Origin: an uncultured Acidobacteriota bacterium
GTDB lineage: Bacteria; Acidobacteriota; Thermoanaerobaculia; UBA5066; Gp7-AA6
Length of the DNA stretch: 64,000 bases
Direction: 5' to 3'
Assembly: GCA_963810205.1 (NCBI GenBank)
Contig: CAWEMP010000013.1
Coordinates: 14,573-78,572 of the forward strand
Shown in pieces: positions 23,807-57,680 of the stretch; the first letter of the stretch is position 1; each line of letters begins with the position of its first letter. Below the pieces are notes generated by a model. It saw only the letters and a program-made list of their open reading frames with translations. It did not search any database and was not told the origin of the DNA. Both the position numbers and the translations under genes were made by a program.

Positions 23807-25393
23807 TCAGTTCACCCGGTTCCGGACCAGGTTGAACTTCAGCATCTCGGTGTAGGAGATGCGGGAGTCGAGATCCTCGCGGGCGATTTTCAGGTGCTGG
23901 GTCAGGCCCTCGAGGACGAGCTCCATGCCGATCGCGAGCTCCTCCGTCGAAGCCGGAGAGAAATGCTCCTCGACGGCCTTCTTCAGGCTCGGGACCGACT
24001 GGAGCGCGGCGAGGTGCTCGGAAAACGGCGCGTCGTCGGAGAGGGTGATCCGGTTGCCCGCGGCGAACCAGGCGACGATCGGCTCGTAGAGCGGGTTCAC
24101 CTTCTCGGGCGGCGGCGGGGCCGGGCGGCGCCGCTGCGGCCCGCCGGTCTCCTCGTCCTCCTCCGCCTCCAGGCGGCGCCGCTCCGAGGGCCGGCCGGAG
24201 TCGGGCGGCGGGAACTTGGCGTCGAAGAGCTTCTTGACGGCGGTGCCGATGAGCTTCTTCGCGATGACCTCCGCGCCCTGCTGCTCGCCCTCGTACACCA
24301 TCTCGACTTTTCCGGTGATCGCGGGCAGCGTCGCCGGCAGGTCGCAGAGCCGCGGCGACACCCGCGTCTCGCCGTTGACGAGGCCGCGCCGCTCGAGGTT
24401 CGACGCGAGGATTTCGATCGCGGAGATCGGCATGCGCGCCGAGACGCCCGAGGACTGGTCGACGAACTCGGAGGCGCGCGCGGCGAAGGCGATCTCCTCG
24501 ACGAGCTCGCGGAAGAGGTCGGGGATCTCGATCTTCGGCCCGCCGTCGCGCTCGACCCAGGCCTCCTGCGCCGTGATTTTCGCCGCGGTCTTCACGTCCT
24601 CGGGATAGTGCGTGAAGATCTGCGAGGAGATGCGGTCCTTCAGCGGCGTGATGATGTTGCCGCGGTTGGTGTAGTCCTCCGGGTTCGCCGAGAAGACGAG
24701 CAGGATGTCGAGGGGGATCCGCACCGGGAAGCCTCGGATCTGCAGGTCCCGCTCCTCGAGGATGTTCAAGAGCCCGACCTGGATGCGGGGCTGGAGGTCC
24801 GGCAGCTCGTTGATCGCGAAGATGCCGCGGTTCGTGCGCGGGACGATGCCGAAGTGGATGACCTCCTCGTCCGAGTAGGCGCGCCGCTCGGTGGCGGCCT
24901 TGATCGGGTCGATGTCGCCGATGAGGTCCGCGATCGTCACGTCGGGCGTCGCGAGCTTCTCGCGGTAACGCTCCTCGCGGCCGATCCAGACGATCGGCGT
25001 CGCGTCGCCCTTCTCGGCGGTGATGCGCCTGCCGTACTTGGTGATGGGCGCGAAGGGATCCTCGTTGAGCTCGCTTCCGGCGATCGCCGGGATCTCGGCG
25101 TCGAGCAGGTGGACGAGCAGGCGGAGCAGCCGCGTCTTGGCCTGGCCGCGCAGGCCCAGCAGCAGCATGTCGTGCTTGGAGAGGATCGCGTTGTGGAGCG
25201 CGGGCAGGACCGTGCGCTCGTACCCGTGGATGCCGGCGAAGGGATTCTCGCCCTGGGTCAGCGCGCGGCAGAGGTTGCCGCGGAGCTCTTCCTTGATGCC
25301 TCGCGAAACGTAGCCGGACGACTTCAGATCTCCGAGGGTCTGGGGCTTCTGGGGTCAGGCCTTGATTCTGTACTCCCCGGCCGCCCTGGTCAT
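23807..25393 (-). CDS. AAA+ ATPase of Mg-chelatase ChlI/sigma-54-interaction-like type (Walker A GLRGQAKT); in-frame TGA at codon 13
   Basis: 453-aa ORF. The N-terminal domain upstream (..FAGIHGYERTVLPALHNAILSKHD) is in frame back to ATG 25393, but interrupted by a TGA inside an inverted repeat. Confidence 0.65.
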
Positions 25394-25472
25394 CCGCTCT
25401 TTTGCTCATCTGATTAATCCAACTTTCTGCCAACTTGCGGCTCATGAGTACAGAATCAAGGCCTGACCCCAG
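25344..25472. repeat. Perfect 27-bp inverted repeat (arms about 25344-25370 and 25446-25472) around a 75-nt relatively AT-rich loop holding the RBS and ATG of the AAA+ gene
   Basis: Seen in sequence: cttctggggtcaggccttgattctgtactc ... gagtacagaatcaaggcctgaccccagc. Confidence 0.8.
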
Positions 25473-25506: not shown

Positions 25507-25992
25507 TCAACCCGGTTTGAAGGAGGGGGCCTGGTCGGAGGGCGCAAAGAGCGTCGGGGCGGGCTTGTGGGCGAGGGCGGCCGCCCGGCCGGCGAGCGCC
25601 TGCATGCGCGCCCGGTCGAAACCGACGACCGTCTCGGCGATCTTGCCGTCGGCGCCGACCCGGAAGAGCGTCGGAACGTTCGCCACGCCGAGCGCATCCG
25701 ACGCCGGCCAGGGCTCGCGGTCGTAGAGGGTCTCGAGCCGCGTCTTCAGCCGGGCGCCGAAGGCCTTCGTCTTGGCGGCGTCGTCCTGCGTGATCGCGAC
25801 GACCGAGAATGTCCCGCCCTCGGCGATCTGCCGGATCCTCTCGAGGAACGGCCAGGTCAGCTCGCAGGTCGGGCAGGTCGTCTTGAAGACCGCGTAGAGA
25901 GTCTCGCCGCCGCGCCTGGGATCGGCCGCCGCACCGGACTGGTCGCGCAAAGTGATCTTCGGGAACGGAGCTCCCGGGTCGAGGGCGGCCAC
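25507..25992 (-). CDS. Thioredoxin-fold protein (TlpA/AhpC-TSA-like, CPTC active site)
   Basis: 161 aa with FKTTCPTCELTWPF. Confidence 0.7.
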   Translation of the reverse strand: MAALDPGAPFPKITLRDQSGAAADPRRGGETLYAVFKTTCPTCELTWPFLERIRQIAEGGTFSVVAITQDDAAKTKAFGARLKTRLETLYDREPWPASDALGVANVPTLFRVGADGKIAETVVGFDRARMQALAGRAAALAHKPAPTLFAPSDQAPSFKPG

Positions 25993-52502: not shown

Positions 52503-53363
52503 TTGAGACCCGAGAACCGAAACCGCTGGAGCTTCCCCGACCTCGGCGTCGGCGTGGGCCTGCGCACGGTCCACTACGCGCACATCCTCGAGCAGAAGCC
52601 CGAGGTCGATTTCTTCGAGGTTCTGTCGGAGAACTACCTCGACACGGGCGGCCGGCCCGCCTGGGTGCTCGACCAGGTCGCCGAACGGTACCCCGTCGTT
52701 CTGCACGGCGTTTCGATGTCGATCGGCTCGACCGATCCGCTCGACCGCGCCTACCTCTCGAAACTGAAAGCCCTCGCCGCCCGCACCCGCGCCCTCTGGG
52801 TTTCGGACCATCTGTGCTGGACCGGCGTTTCCGGACGGAATACCCACGACCTGCTCCCGATGCCGCTGACCGAGGAGGCGCTCGCGCACGTCGTCGCCCG
52901 CGTGAAGATCGTGTCGGACATCCTCGAGCGGCCGCTGATCCTCGAGAACGCCTCGACGTACGCGGAGTTCGCCGCGTCGAGCATGACGGAGTGGGAGTTC
53001 TTCGGCCGGCTGATGGAGGAGGCGGACTGCGGGATGCTCCTCGACGTCAACAACGTCTACGTCAGCGCCTTCAACCACGGATTCGACCCGAAGGCCTACC
53101 TCGACGCGATCGATCCGTCGCGCGTGGCGCAGTACCACCTCGCGGGCCACACGAACAAGGGAACGCACATCCTCGACACGCACAGCGACCACGCCATCCC
53201 GGAGGTCTGGGAGCTCTACCGCCGCTCGGTCGCGCGCACGGGCAACGTGGCCACGCTGTTCGAGTGGGACGGCGACATCCCGGCCTTCGAGGTGGTGCAC
53301 GCCGAAGCCCTGAAGGCCCGGAAGTTCCGGGACGAGGAGAACAAGGTTGCCGCGGCCTCTTGA
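52503..53363 (+). CDS. DUF692/UPF0276 enzyme = multinuclear non-haem iron oxidase (MNIO; MbnB/BufB-like)
   Basis: GVGLR...DFFEVLSENY...HGVSMSIGS...SDHLCW...LENASTY...LLDVNNVYVSAFNHG...YHLAGH...LFEWD. TTG start is inferred. Confidence 0.8.
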   Translation: MRPENRNRWSFPDLGVGVGLRTVHYAHILEQKPEVDFFEVLSENYLDTGGRPAWVLDQVAERYPVVLHGVSMSIGSTDPLDRAYLSKLKALAARTRALWVSDHLCWTGVSGRNTHDLLPMPLTEEALAHVVARVKIVSDILERPLILENASTYAEFAASSMTEWEFFGRLMEEADCGMLLDVNNVYVSAFNHGFDPKAYLDAIDPSRVAQYHLAGHTNKGTHILDTHSDHAIPEVWELYRRSVARTGNVATLFEWDGDIPAFEVVHAEALKARKFRDEENKVAAAS

Positions 53364-54198
53364 GCTGCCGCTTCCGCGCCTCCAGCGCTGGATGCAGGCG
53401 GTCATCGAGCAGCCCGGAACGGCGGAGGAAGCCGTCGCGGCCGAGGCGGCGCGGGCCGAGCTCGATCCCGCGTCGATCGCCGGCGTGATCCTCCCGTCGA
53501 AGACACTGTCGCCGGTCGAGCGAATCGGCGTCTACCAGGGCATGTACCTGCTGCGGATGGTCGAGGCGCTCGAAAACGATTTCCCGGCCGTCGCGCACTT
53601 CCTCGGGGCCGAGCGCTTCGCGGAGCTCGTCACGCGATACGTCGCGGCTCATCCGTCGAGGAGCTACACGTTCAACCGCCTGGGCGACAGTTTCCCCGGG
53701 TTCATTAGGACGTCGTACAGGGTCCGCCGGAAGGCCTTCGTCGCCGAGCTCGCGCGCCTCGAGAGTCTGGTGACCGAGGTGTTCGACGCGCCGCCGTCGC
53801 CAGCCTGGCCCGCCGAGGAGATCGCGGAGATCCCGGAAGCGGCCTGGCCGGGCGCCGTGCTCGTGCCGTCGGCGGCCCTGCGGGTCGGGTCGTTCGCCTA
53901 CCCGGTCAACGCCTACCTGCAGTCGGTCAAGGACGAGAACCACGACCATCCGGCGACCGGCCGGCAACCCACGTGGATCGCGGTTTATCGGAAGAACTAC
54001 GAGGTCTGGCGGCTCGATCTCTCGAAGCCGGCCCACGACTTCCTCGCCGCCCTCGTGAAGGGCCGGCCGTTCGGCAAGGCCGTCGTCGCGGCCACACGCG
54101 GGCTCCAGGGCGCGCCTGGCGAGCCGCTCTTCCGCTGGCTGCGCGACTGGGTGGCCGAGGGCTTCTTCCAGAGCGTCGTCCTCCCGACTCCTCGCTGA
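53347..54198 (+). CDS. DUF2063 protein (MbnC/BufC-like MNIO partner)
   Basis: Overlaps the MNIO gene by 17 nt. N-terminal LQRWMQAVI motif region. 283 aa. Confidence 0.75.
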   Translation: MPRPLELPLPRLQRWMQAVIEQPGTAEEAVAAEAARAELDPASIAGVILPSKTLSPVERIGVYQGMYLLRMVEALENDFPAVAHFLGAERFAELVTRYVAAHPSRSYTFNRLGDSFPGFIRTSYRVRRKAFVAELARLESLVTEVFDAPPSPAWPAEEIAEIPEAAWPGAVLVPSAALRVGSFAYPVNAYLQSVKDENHDHPATGRQPTWIAVYRKNYEVWRLDLSKPAHDFLAALVKGRPFGKAVVAATRGLQGAPGEPLFRWLRDWVAEGFFQSVVLPTPR

Positions 54199-54225
54199 GG
54201 AGCGCCCGCCTATAATCCCGGCCGC

Positions 54226-56520
54226 GTGCTTCCGGACTCGGGAATTCTTTCGCTGTCGAACGGGCGCAGGTGGCTCGCCCTCGGCGCGCTCTTCGCCCTC
54301 CAGCGCGCGCTCGCTCTCGCCGGCACACCCGCGAACGCGGCGCGCTTCGTCGCGATCCTGGCTCTCGGTCTCGCCTGCGCCGGGTCGGCGCTCGCGTTCG
54401 AAGGCCGCGTCGTCCTGAAGGGGTCCCTCGACCCGGTCGTCGGCGCGGAGGTCGTGGTCCTCGGGTCCAACGTCACGCAGATCACCGGCCCCGGGGGCTT
54501 CTTCCGCTGGGAGCCGACGCCCGTCGCGCCCTTCGAGGTTCTCGTCGTGCTGCCGGGCGGCCGTTACATGCGGCCGTTCACCGTCGCGAGCCTTCCCGCC
54601 GACGGCCCGGTGACGATCACCGTGGAGCCGATCGCCGAAGAGAGCGTGCTCGTGACGGCCGGAGCGGCGCCGACGATCGAGGCGACGCCGGTCAACGGGA
54701 CGACCATCGTCCCGAAACAGGACATCGAGTCGCGCCAGCCGTTCAACCTGACGCAGTCGGTGGAGAACGTGGCGGGCGTGTCGTCGGTTTCGGAGGGCCA
54801 GGCGGCGGTCCCGGCGATTCGCGGCCTCGCGCGCGGGAGGAGCCTCATCCTCCTCGACGGCGCGCGGGTGTCGTCGGAGCGGCGCGTAGGCCCGAGCGCG
54901 ACGTACGTCGACCCGTTCGTGCTCGATGGCGTCGAAGTGGCGCGCGGTCCGGGCTCGGTGGCCTACGGGTCGGACGCGTTCGGCGGCGTGATCGCGGCGC
55001 GCACGCTCGCCGTGGCGCCCGGCGGGCCGCTCCACGTCGAGGCGACCGGCGACTACGGCGTCGGAATCCCGGGCGGCAGCGTCGGCGCCTCGGTCTCCTC
55101 GCCTCTCGGCGCGGACGGGGGCATCCTCGTCGCCGGGCACTACCGCTCCTACGGGAACTGGGACAGCCCCGACGGCGAGGTGATCAACTCGGGCTTCCGC
55201 GACAGCGGCGTGCTCGTGCGCGCTTCCTACCTGCTGGGTCCCGGGACTCTGACCGCGGGCTGGCAGGGCGACTACGGCCGGGACATCGACCGTCCGCGCA
55301 ACAACTCGGACGTCGTGCGCTTCTTCTATCCCGAGGAGAACTCGAGCCGGTTCACGCTGTCGTACGACAGCCAGCCGTTCGCCGGGTTCTCGCGCGTCGG
55401 CTTCGTCGGGCTCATCGGCTCCTACGACCAGATCACGGACCAGTACCGGTACGCGACGCCGGCGACGGTCGCGTCGGTCGAGCGGGCCGACGTCTCGGCC
55501 AACGACTTCCAGGCCCGCGGCTTCGCGGAGCGGTTCTTCGGCCCCGTGCGGGTCGAGCTCGGAGTCGACGTCAACGGCCGCTACGACCTGCACGCCCTCG
55601 ACGTCGCCGTCCGGTACACGGACCCGATCGAAGAGCGGGTCAACGTGTCCGTCGACGACGCGCACCGCACGGACGCCGCCGGTTACCTGACGGCGGAGGC
55701 GGCGCTTCTGAAGCAGCTGACGCTCTCCGGCGGCGTGCGCTACGACAGCGTGACGACGGTCAACCAGGGCGGCTACTTCGGCGACCAGTCCACTTCGAAC
55801 GGCGCCGTGTCGGGCTCGGTCGCGCTGACCGCGGGCTCCTTCGGCGGTTTCTCCGCGACCGGGCAGTTCTCGCACGGGTTCCGCGATCCGGTCTTGTCGG
55901 ACCGGTACTTTCGAGGCCCTTCGGGCCGCGGTTTCATCACCGGCAACCCGGATCTCGAGCCGGAGACGGCGGACCAGTGGGACGTCGCCCTGCGCTACAA
56001 CGGATCCGGCTTCCGCACGGCGTTCTACATGTACGACTACACGATCACGAACCTCATCGAGCGGTACGCGGGCGAGCTCCCGGACGACTTCTTCTTCCGC
56101 AACCGGGGCGAAGCCCACCTGCAGGGGCTCGAGCTCGAGGTGCAGGTGGACCTTCCCGAGGGATTCGCCGTGGCGCTGGCCGGGCAGATCGAGCGCGGCG
56201 TCACCGTGGACGACGACCGGCCGATCGACGACATACCGCCGGAGTCGCTGAATCTCCAGCTGCGCAAGGCCTTCGGGCCGGCGTTCGTCCAGGCGCGCGG
56301 CGTCGTATACGCGGGCGACGCCAACCCCGGGCCCAACGAGCGGGCGAGGCCGGGCTACGGGTTGCTCGACCTCGGCGGCGGGTACCGCTTCGCGGAGCAC
56401 TTCGAGCTCCAGGCGTACGTGCGGAACGTGCTCGACAAGCTCTACCTGGTCAGTCCCGACGCGCGCGCCGTGCCGGCGCCGGGGATCTCGGCGACGTTCA
56501 CGGGCTTCGTTCGGTTCTAG
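54226..56520 (+). CDS. TonB-dependent outer-membrane receptor with N-terminal carboxypeptidase-regulatory-like domain
   Basis: Plug region (IRGLARGRSLILLDGARV), a 22-strand barrel, terminal F. Confidence 0.85.
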   Translation: MLPDSGILSLSNGRRWLALGALFALQRALALAGTPANAARFVAILALGLACAGSALAFEGRVVLKGSLDPVVGAEVVVLGSNVTQITGPGGFFRWEPTPVAPFEVLVVLPGGRYMRPFTVASLPADGPVTITVEPIAEESVLVTAGAAPTIEATPVNGTTIVPKQDIESRQPFNLTQSVENVAGVSSVSEGQAAVPAIRGLARGRSLILLDGARVSSERRVGPSATYVDPFVLDGVEVARGPGSVAYGSDAFGGVIAARTLAVAPGGPLHVEATGDYGVGIPGGSVGASVSSPLGADGGILVAGHYRSYGNWDSPDGEVINSGFRDSGVLVRASYLLGPGTLTAGWQGDYGRDIDRPRNNSDVVRFFYPEENSSRFTLSYDSQPFAGFSRVGFVGLIGSYDQITDQYRYATPATVASVERADVSANDFQARGFAERFFGPVRVELGVDVNGRYDLHALDVAVRYTDPIEERVNVSVDDAHRTDAAGYLTAEAALLKQLTLSGGVRYDSVTTVNQGGYFGDQSTSNGAVSGSVALTAGSFGGFSATGQFSHGFRDPVLSDRYFRGPSGRGFITGNPDLEPETADQWDVALRYNGSGFRTAFYMYDYTITNLIERYAGELPDDFFFRNRGEAHLQGLELEVQVDLPEGFAVALAGQIERGVTVDDDRPIDDIPPESLNLQLRKAFGPAFVQARGVVYAGDANPGPNERARPGYGLLDLGGGYRFAEHFELQAYVRNVLDKLYLVSPDARAVPAPGISATFTGFVRF

Positions 56521-56562
56521 GACGGCCGGGCGCGGGAAGTCAGGAGCCCGGAGGCAACGATC

Positions 56563-57655
56563 GGGGTCAGCCCTGAAGGTCTGACGATTGGGGTCTGACC
56601 TGAAAGTCTGAAGGTTCGTGCCCGAGCGCGGACGCGACCCGCTCGACGCGTCTTGCGAGAGCCGGATCGCGAACCATCGCCCTCTCCAGCCGGCGCAGGC
56701 CGTGGGCGAACGCGGATTCGTCTCGCCCGAAGCAGCCGGCCAGCGCAGCAGCCGCGATCCCATGGTCCCGCCGCCCGACATAAGCGGTGATCAGACGTGC
56801 CTGTGACTCCGCTCGGCCCTGCGACGGCCCCTTCAGCCAACCGAGCGAGAAGCCCTGCAGCGTGCATGCTGCAGTCGCGAATGTCGACGGCGTCCAGCGG
56901 CTCTCCTTTGGCAAGGCCAACCGCGCCTCGTGCAACGAGCGCCGCGCGAACTCCTCCCCACCCTTGACGACGCGCCCGAGCGGTTCGACGTCGTCGTAGG
57001 ATTCAGGCTCGGCGGATCCCATCCAGTGCCGATACGCCGCGCGCGCTCGTGGCCGAGTCGACGCGAGCCGCTGCAGCACGAAATCGACATCGAGCCAGCT
57101 CGGTCCTCCTCCCTCGCGGTACCACCGATCGCTTGACCAGGGGAAGACCTCGGGTCGGTCCACGATCCCGGCCTTGACCGGATTGAGGTGAATGTACCGG
57201 ACGAGCGTCGCCAGGTAGCGCTCATGCTCCACGAGGAAGGCCTTGTACCGGCCCTGAAAGAGATGGCCGACGCGATCGTGCCGGACGTTGAACTTCTGGC
57301 TGTAGTAGAAATGCAGCGCCAGCATGACCTTCGAGAGGAGGACGGGACCTCGCTCGATCGCCAGATGGACGTGGTTCGGCATGAGGCAATAGGCGAGCAC
57401 GCCGAACCCATATCGATCGCGGCATTCGGCGAGTCGCGAGAGGTACAGTCGCCGATCTGCGTCGTCGCGGAAGAGGTCACGCCGCTCGTTTCCGCGGGCG
57501 ATGACGTGATAAACGCCCCCGGCGATCTCGACTCGCGGCGCGCGCGACATCGCTTCCGATTTCGCTCCTCTATCCCTACTATTGTCGCAAGCGGGCCCTG
57601 AAGTGTCATACCTTCAGGGCTGACCCCAAGTGTCAGACTTTCAGGGCTGACCCCC
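56563..57655. mobile_element. REP-associated tyrosine transposase (RAYT) unit flanked by inverted doublets of REP-like hairpin sequences
   Basis: Left GGGGTCAGCCCTGAAGGTCTGAC and GGGGTCTGACCTGAAAGTCTGAAGG. Right GTCATACCTTCAGGGCTGACCCC and GTCAGACTTTCAGGGCTGACCCCC (reverse complements, 1 mismatch). Confidence 0.7.
56567..57550 (-). CDS. tnpA: IS200/IS605-like Y1 (HuH) transposase, REP-associated (RAYT/TnpA_REP)
   Basis: VYHVIARGNERRDLF...LMPNHVHLAIE...HLFQGRYKA (HuH and catalytic Y). The ORF tail reads into the REP. Confidence 0.8.
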   Translation of the reverse strand: MSRAPRVEIAGGVYHVIARGNERRDLFRDDADRRLYLSRLAECRDRYGFGVLAYCLMPNHVHLAIERGPVLLSKVMLALHFYYSQKFNVRHDRVGHLFQGRYKAFLVEHERYLATLVRYIHLNPVKAGIVDRPEVFPWSSDRWYREGGGPSWLDVDFVLQRLASTRPRARAAYRHWMGSAEPESYDDVEPLGRVVKGGEEFARRSLHEARLALPKESRWTPSTFATAACTLQGFSLGWLKGPSQGRAESQARLITAYVGRRDHGIAAAALAGCFGRDESAFAHGLRRLERAMVRDPALARRVERVASALGHEPSDFQVRPQSSDLQG

Positions 57656-57680
57656 ATCGGGGAAAGGATAGCCTCTGCCC

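Follow-up and report, generated by a model that had tools for sequence, protein, structure and literature searches.

What kind of element is the single gene that lies between doubled inverted repeats at 56530-57660 of a 64-kb stretch of DNA from an uncultured Acidobacteriota bacterium? The window, by which we mean the whole stretch of 64,000 nucleotides that was analysed, had been read once before from sequence alone, and that reading called the locus a "classic" arrangement of a REP-associated tyrosine transposase (RAYT) gene flanked by repetitive extragenic palindromic (REP) sequences. We found that the gene does encode a RAYT-family protein, but that its repeats are terminal inverted repeats (TIRs) of another type. 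We consider it probable that the locus is a TIRtron, consisting of a TIRYT gene, which encodes a Y1 HUH nuclease joined to a helix-turn-helix (HTH) domain resembling DnaA domain IV, together with its cognate TIRs, acting as proposed below and inherited vertically.

Only one convincing open reading frame (ORF) was present between 56530 and 57660, on the minus strand. It is enclosed by inverted arms of 54 nt each (56558-56611 and 57606-57659; 85% complementary), and in each of them two 27-nt units with the core GGGGTCAGCCCTGAARGTCTGAC stand in tandem, those of the right arm being 93% identical. The sequence-only reading had described two REP-like 23-25-mers in inverted orientation on each side; the doubling and the inversion stood, but the period is 27 nt and the repeats are TIRs. 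The 23-mer GGGGTCAGCCCTGAAGGTCTGAC, whose expected count in shuffled sequence was 0, occurred without mismatch at 56563-56585 on the plus strand and with one mismatch each at 57605-57627 and 57632-57654 on the minus strand, and a fourth, degenerate copy with four mismatches lay at 56590-56612 on the plus strand. The left doublet (56563-56612, plus strand, period 27 nt), at the 3' end of the gene, is made up of the perfect outer unit and the degenerate inner unit, and the right doublet (57605-57654, minus strand), at the 5' end, of the inner unit 57605-57627 and the outer unit 57632-57654. Units of the right doublet are laid out as the terminal 8-mer GGGGTCAG, then CC, then two 8-nt direct repeats, CTGAAAGT and CTGACACT. 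GGGGTCAG also forms the outer ends of the whole element, at 56563 and, inverted, at 57654, and matches the TIR signature GGGGWSAS.

The closest relatives found were cassettes at two loci in sister Acidobacteriota genomes, L009 (6364-7452) and L026 (4410-5498), which were 76% identical to the window cassette in nucleotide sequence (blastn) and 79% in amino acid sequence. The blastn match to both began and ended exactly at the outer GGGG of the repeats, with unrelated sequence in the immediate flanks, and this defines a TIR-bounded unit of 1,092 bp (56563-57654, minus strand) with a single ORF. The TIRs of this clade are duplicated to doublets of 2 x 27 nt at both ends. No target-site duplication was seen at the three cassettes, only a tendency for T to precede GGGG.

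The TIRYT gene (56567-57550, minus strand) encodes 327 amino acids arranged as a Y1 HUH nuclease, a linker and a DnaA-domain-IV-like HTH. Its N-terminal 140 residues matched Pfam Y1_Tnp (2.4e-15), and the protein passed the NCBIfam model for REP-associated tyrosine transposases (NF047646, REP_Tyr_transpos; 84.7 bits, cut-off 80) and failed that for IS200/IS605 transposases (NF033573; 23 bits, cut-off 55). The catalytic domain (residues 4-140; 57131-57541, minus strand) contains H60-V61-H62 (57365-57373) and Tyr119 (57194-57196), and residues H60, H62, Y119, N123 (within RYIHxNP) and W138/S140 were invariant in 30 aligned homologues at 48-79% identity. The active site of E. coli TnpA_REP comprises H59/H61, Y115 and N119 (PMC3479197), and the spacing from Tyr to Asn is identical in the two proteins. 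Asn123 is the likely metal ligand. The best Foldseek match in the PDB to an AlphaFold2 model of the protein (mean pLDDT 85.3) was 4er8_A, TnpA_REP bound to REP (E 3.7e-7, TMt 0.77), followed by the TnpA structures of IS200, ISDra2 and IS608 (E about 1e-4 to 1e-3). Fold comparison was needed to tie the protein to solved RAYT and IS200 structures, because sequence searches gave no such link (phmmer E 0.44 to 4er8; no match of the family profile at E <= 0.1). Identification of the gene as a RAYT-family Y1 gene, proposed from sequence alone, was borne out by classification with hidden Markov models as well as by the invariant HVH60-62 and Tyr119 and the top fold match.

Beyond the Y1 domain the protein carries a C-terminal extension of 190 amino acids that contains the HTH. 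Both profile and Foldseek comparison placed a DnaA-domain-IV-like domain at residues about 215-310 (56621-56908, minus strand). The family profile matched the DNA-binding domain of M. tuberculosis DnaA (3pvp, E 7e-10) and other DnaA structures to 1e-4, and Foldseek aligned 3pvp_A with TMt 0.83 and a root-mean-square deviation of 1.8 A over 92 columns. The likeness to DnaA domain IV (3PVP, 1J1V) is one of fold and profile homology. The differences are that DES(A/T) stands where DnaA has the base-reading DHTT, that the AAA+ domain is absent, and that the TIR is unlike the DnaA box TTATNCACA, a point also made by Quentin et al. (2018; PMC6006769).

A class of RAYT-like genes that have TIRs in place of REPs on their flanks was described by Di Nocera et al. 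(2013; PMC3733652), who named the proteins TIRYTs and the units TIRtrons. In their survey many TIRs shared GGGGWSAS, TIRs often overlapped the 3' end of the ORF, and in some genomes they formed moderately repeated families of singles, dimers and clusters; the sharpest protein group was that of the Acidobacteria, with examples in K. versatilis (aba1552/3447), T. saanensis (tsa392), A. capsulatum (acp645) and G. mallensis (gma794). In the classification by Quentin et al., most TIRYTs fall in subclass 2.1 of the Y1 HuH superfamily, those of 2.1.2 having Bac_DnaA_C-like or HTH C-termini, and REP-like sequences were not found beside subclass 2.1 genes. With its Y1 protein of ~320 amino acids with a Bac_DnaA_C-type C-terminus, its GGGGTCAG termini conforming to GGGGWSAS, the overlap of its 3' TIR with the ORF and its Acidobacteriota host, the window element agrees with the description of TIRYT/TIRtron subclass 2.1.2. 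It differs in that the whole 27-nt TIR unit is tandemly duplicated at both ends and the ORF runs 9 codons into the second unit. Multiple TIR units were also found in about 20-25% of the relatives that we sampled, the published TIRtron examples being compared by description only.

These features could be followed across the family. A protein search yielded more than 3,900 homologues of about 310-330 amino acids, many with PF08299 plus PF01797, and JGI metagenomes contained more than 590 loci of the family. We surveyed the TIRs of 80 metagenomic loci, from relatives at 32-59% identity. GGGGTCAG, with at most one mismatch, was present within 250 nt upstream of the gene in 72 of the 80 loci and inverted downstream in 71, against an estimated chance rate of about 0.1 per flank. 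The family consensus TIR was atGGGGTCAGgCtTg and the median element measured 1,008 bp. Two or more TIR copies occurred upstream in 15/80 loci and downstream in 20/80, which makes the doublets in the window a recurrent variant. Of 74 loci, 71 had their stop codon within the 3' TIR, 29 of them using the TGA of CTGACCCC. The inner part of the TIR contained adjacent direct repeats of about 8 nt in 25% of cases, compared with 2% in shuffles. TTGACA-like hexamers (at least 5 of 6 matches) were found in 41/71 family TIRs compared with 10% in shuffles, and perfect TTGACA in 20/71 inner 5' TIRs (loci L032-L111) compared with 0.5%; TTGACA was often part of two tandem 8-mers containing TTGAC. This pattern suggests that a -35 box or a protein-binding iteron may be built into the family TIR.

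A second TIRYT gene illustrates the same division between constant end and variable interior. This paralogue (L112 2908-3962; 57% identical) lies on the same 1.76-Mb contig as the 79% orthologue at L009, and has a single 27-nt TIR, GGGGTCAACC GTGTATTC CTGTATTC, in which GGGGTCA is retained and the inner 8-nt direct repeats are different. Its stop codon falls within the terminal TTGACCCC.

The ORF tail in the window crosses both left repeat units, and its stop codon, 4 nt short of the element end, is the TGA of the terminal CTGACCCC; that the tail reads through the left repeat had been recognised from sequence alone. The left doublet codes for the last 15-16 residues of the protein (SDFQVRPQSSDLQG, then the stop), which are predicted to be disordered (pLDDT about 31). 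The inner 3' unit (56590-56612) reads GGGGTCTG in the window and in L009, and GGGGCCTG in L026. With GGGGTCTG in the inner unit, the in-frame TGA at which many relatives terminate the ORF is lost, and the ORF consequently continues for 9 codons into the outer unit. All homologues at >= 62% identity conserve the extension (tail ..QVRPQxSDxQG).

At the other end of the gene, a promoter-like site (57581-57609, minus strand) combines a -35 ATGACA within the inner TIR unit, a 17-nt spacer and a TG-extended -10 GACAAT. One such site was found where 0.1 was expected, by consensus match only, and ATGACA...GACAAT is conserved in L026. The enrichment of TTGACA in family TIRs agrees with this candidate promoter in the inner right unit of the window.

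The first alternative is a classic REP-RAYT system, in which a RAYT of group 2/3 type has REP hairpins or REPINs on both sides and disperses them in high copy. The match to the NCBIfam model, the best fold match to TnpA_REP bound to REP, the inverted repeats on both sides of the gene and the REPIN-like hairpins formed by gene-less inverted pairs in sister genomes would all be expected of such a system. E. coli TnpA_REP (4ER8; Messing 2012; Ton-Hoang 2012) has the same Y1 HUH fold, the same HUH, Tyr and Asn(+4) residues, a gene flanked by cognate repeats, and a short invariant tag at the repeat end (GTAG in E. coli REP, GGGGTCAG in the cassette). However, TnpA_REP has 165 amino acids and no HTH, E. 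coli-type RAYTs being without the additional DnaA-like domain that lies in the 190-residue extension here, and its REPs are imperfect hairpins of ~30 nt in hundreds of copies. The cassette repeats carry neither a GTAG nor a CGTC tag, and their single units fold no better than shuffles (z -0.4 and -1.7), with a stem of only 5 bp (GTCAG/CTGAC); the cassette ends reach z -1.1 to -2.3. The CCCTGAAG/CTTCAGGG hairpins of the sequence-only reading proved to be mostly one motif on opposite strands 1 kb apart. What stands of them is one local hairpin (57595-57620, minus strand; z about -2.2), in which the inner right unit pairs with a partial inverted copy (GCCCTGAAG...CTTCAGGGC) and which is conserved only partly in L009 and L026. 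Copy number also appears low, with no further copy in the 64 kb and the exact 18-mer marking about 6 loci in each sister genome, the family profile misses 4er8 by sequence, and REP-like sequences were not reported around subclass 2.1 genes (PMC6006769). We regard a classic REP-RAYT system as improbable, and the earlier description holds in outline but errs on the subclass and on the kind of repeat.

Although the repeat is unique to the cassette within the 64-kb window, it is dispersed in sister genomes, and the HuH and Tyr residues are present in the protein. A scan with GGGGTCAGCCCTGAARGT of contigs of GTDB representative genomes returned 30 stretches, 12 of which belong to three Acidobacteriota metagenome-assembled genomes (MAGs): MFD00822.bin.1.237 (at least 6), MFD05942.bin.1.319 (4) and MFD05442.bin.1.363 (2). 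Exact 18-mer loci numbered about 2-6 per sister genome. About 14 single matches in unrelated taxa, where similarity ended with the 18-mer, were taken as chance. Two of the loci in the three sister MAGs are the orthologous cassettes, and the remainder are gene-less clusters in which 1-3 units face 1-3 inverted units across 45-200 nt, forming convergent pairs or doublets of 90-260 bp. This dispersal resembles the repeat families of published TIRtrons. The clusters are apparently intergenic, often just past a stop codon, and as single strands the pairs form long hairpins (z -6.3). Mini-elements occupied orthologous positions in all four syntenic MAG pairs, with flank identity of 86-91%, which indicates that they are old and stable rather than recently mobile.

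These mini-elements are like REPINs (Bertels and Rainey, 2011) in being inverted repeats around a short spacer, as is a further element at 25351-25470 of the window, and in forming one long hairpin, lying between genes and persisting at orthologous sites. They differ from REPINs in that their arms are TIR units, often 1-3 per side, rather than REP palindromes, and in being few rather than tens to hundreds in number. One mini-element of 90 bp is inverted between two Acidobacteriota MAGs (L020 5655-5744 and L004 5777-5866): the flanks are collinear, and when one element is reverse-complemented it can be aligned with the other through the spacer. The arms could have recombined with each other, or a protein could have inverted or reinserted the element. 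Separately, a 427-amino-acid membrane-protein gene (L016 1887-3170) adjoins the outer end of a TIR doublet and is missing at the syntenic position in L002 (6829-6837), so that this difference in gene content falls exactly at a TIR boundary.

Stable mini-elements also belong to a second alternative, in which a domesticated DNA-binding and nicking protein has no part in mobility, its flanking repeats are autoregulatory operators, and the dispersed copies have regulatory or structural roles, for instance as terminators or as sites where proteins bind. The promoter-like -35 inside the TIR and the TTGACA enrichment in family TIRs are in keeping with this, as are the persistence of mini-elements at orthologous intergenic positions, apparently just past stop codons, and a gene that is single-copy and apparently inherited vertically. 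However, the HUH and Tyr residues never vary within the family, and this speaks for a nuclease function that has been kept. Both ends of the unit carry the conserved 8-mer at the very point where homology stops, and one TIR-bounded element is inverted between species. We give little credence to a purely regulatory role.

The genomic context bears on whether the cassette is a recent arrival. The L009 and L026 loci are orthologous, and they are syntenic over 6 kb at 88%. Between the window and L026, blastn showed a DUF2063/HvfC gene to be the only shared neighbour (84% nucleotide identity); in both, one gene separates it from the 3' end of the cassette. The gene between DUF2063 and the cassette is a TonB receptor in the window and an S8 peptidase in L026, and the other flank holds a glycogen-debranching gene in the window and an ECF sigma factor in L026. 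Searches of L009 and L026 by tblastn with the TonB receptor and the glycogen-debranching protein gave no match, and full synteny with the window was not borne out. With one gene copy in the window, orthologous copies at L009 and L026 and a shared DUF2063 neighbour, the TIRYT gene in this lineage appears to behave like a single-copy, vertically inherited (domesticated) gene rather than an actively hopping insertion sequence (IS), yet a 57% paralogue is present on the L009 contig. The cassette looks as though it has been retained vertically within a region of gene flux.

The third alternative, an autonomous and currently active IS200/IS605-like IS recently inserted beside the TonB-receptor/RiPP cluster, has in its favour a discrete 1.09-kb unit with homology ending exactly at the TIRs and unrelated immediate flanks, neighbouring genes that vary between related genomes and a very large and widespread family, but is very unlikely given the failed IS200/IS605 model (23 bits, cut-off 55), the single copy in the window, the 76% nucleotide identity to the nearest relatives, the orthology of L009 and L026, the position one gene from DUF2063, hence in the same neighbourhood, in a sister genome too, and the lack of any target-site duplication or identical second copy among the cassettes seen. 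The likeness to IS200/IS605 TnpA (IS608, ISDra2) is limited to the Y1 HUH fold: those elements have distinct subterminal hairpins at the left and right ends on one strand and no TIRs, are multi-copy, and encode a TnpA of about 130-150 amino acids, whereas the cassette has true inverted repeats at its ends and one weak local hairpin only.

If the locus is a TIRtron, as we prefer, its protein may work as follows. In single-stranded DNA, the Y1 domain would recognise the invariant GGGGTCAG terminus and nick there or just beside it, in parallel with the reading of GTAG by E. coli TnpA_REP, and the variable inner TIR might load or position the protein through the HTH. The inner TIR and the HTH might also autoregulate the TIRYT gene. 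By analogy with the action that RAYTs are thought to have on REPINs, the TIRYT could act in trans on TIR-bounded hairpin mini-elements.

Several points weigh against this interpretation. Nicking by the Y1 domain, like any transposition, is putative, and the literature that we searched yielded no biochemistry or other experiment on any TIRYT; nor did it yield, beyond the two papers cited above, any mention of TIRYTs or of this pairing of domains, or any paper after 2018 on TIRYTs, on proteins combining Y1 and DnaA_C domains, or on GGGGTCAG. The cognate 23-mer occurs at no other site in the 64-kb window, which holds one TIRYT gene copy, and no insertion polymorphism of mini-elements was seen in the four syntenic MAG pairs. 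The Y1 enzymes of IS200/IS605 elements act on one strand with differing left and right hairpins, whereas the cassette has inverted termini on opposite strands. In a crude test of co-variation by pairwise distances over 71 loci, divergence of the inner TIR was no closer to that of the HTH than to that of the catalytic domain: the partial correlation of TIR with C-terminal distance given N-terminal distance was 0.13, and the reverse was 0.25. Recognition of the inner repeats by the HTH is unsupported by these values.

We offer a more specific proposal tentatively, and consider it doubtful: that TIRYTs have a mechanism distinct from both IS200/IS605 "peel-and-paste" and RAYT/REP processing, by way of a two-part terminus. 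One part would be the family-invariant (T)GGGGTCAG, recognised and nicked by the Y1 domain, and the other a pair of paralogue-specific, iteron-like direct repeats of ~8 nt, read as duplex by the DnaA-IV-like HTH. Such a layout resembles a Rep-protein origin more closely than an IS end. If this is true, a single protein could both repress the promoter of its own gene, embedded in the TIR, and carry out excision, inversion or copying of TIR-bounded hairpin elements.

A different TIR type is represented elsewhere in the window by a miniature element of 120 bp (25351-25470; no strand assigned), with perfect 25-nt inverted arms, GGGGTCAGGCCTTGATTCTGTACTC, around a 70-nt AT-rich spacer; the GC fraction falls to 0.52 here. 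Its terminal 8-mer is that of the TIRYT cassette and its inner sequence is different. As single-stranded DNA it folds at -37 kcal/mol (z -8.7), and it lies 37 nt past the stop codon of a redoxin-like ORF on the minus strand (25507-25992). Neither the window nor the 112 loci yielded a cognate TIRYT gene, and the lack of one in the window implies a second TIRYT type, present or past, in the source genome.

On the 3' side of the cassette, a TonB-dependent receptor gene (54226-56520; Plug and beta-barrel domains) ends 42 nt before the left repeat; that the element follows this receptor gene had been noted in the sequence-only reading. A DUF692/MbnB-TglH-ChrH gene, a DUF2063/HvfC gene, a small ORF and the TonB-dependent receptor gene occupy 53347-56520 of the window (L001 13352-15541), and these genes look like a cluster of the Hvf or methanobactin type for a ribosomally synthesized and post-translationally modified peptide (RiPP). 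The same reading took the element as a possible mobility boundary of the RiPP locus. That idea gains a little from the DUF2063 gene lying one gene from the TIRYT gene in the sister genome, and loses by the differences in the intervening gene and the far flank; the cassette does not look like a newcomer marking the edge of the cluster, and is not evidence for recent mobilisation of the adjacent RiPP-like/TonB genes.

In annotation, the gene should be recorded as a TIRYT-type RAYT homologue and not as an IS200 transposase. As a locus it is routine: one further Acidobacteriota case of a class that received its name in 2013 and its phylogenetic position in 2018. It is of value as a clean example of a family that is very large and experimentally uncharacterised. 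Comparison with its relatives brought out a terminal GGGGTCAG that hardly varies, inner direct repeats that do vary and often include a -35 box, a stop codon that habitually falls within the TIR, and REPIN-like mini-elements.

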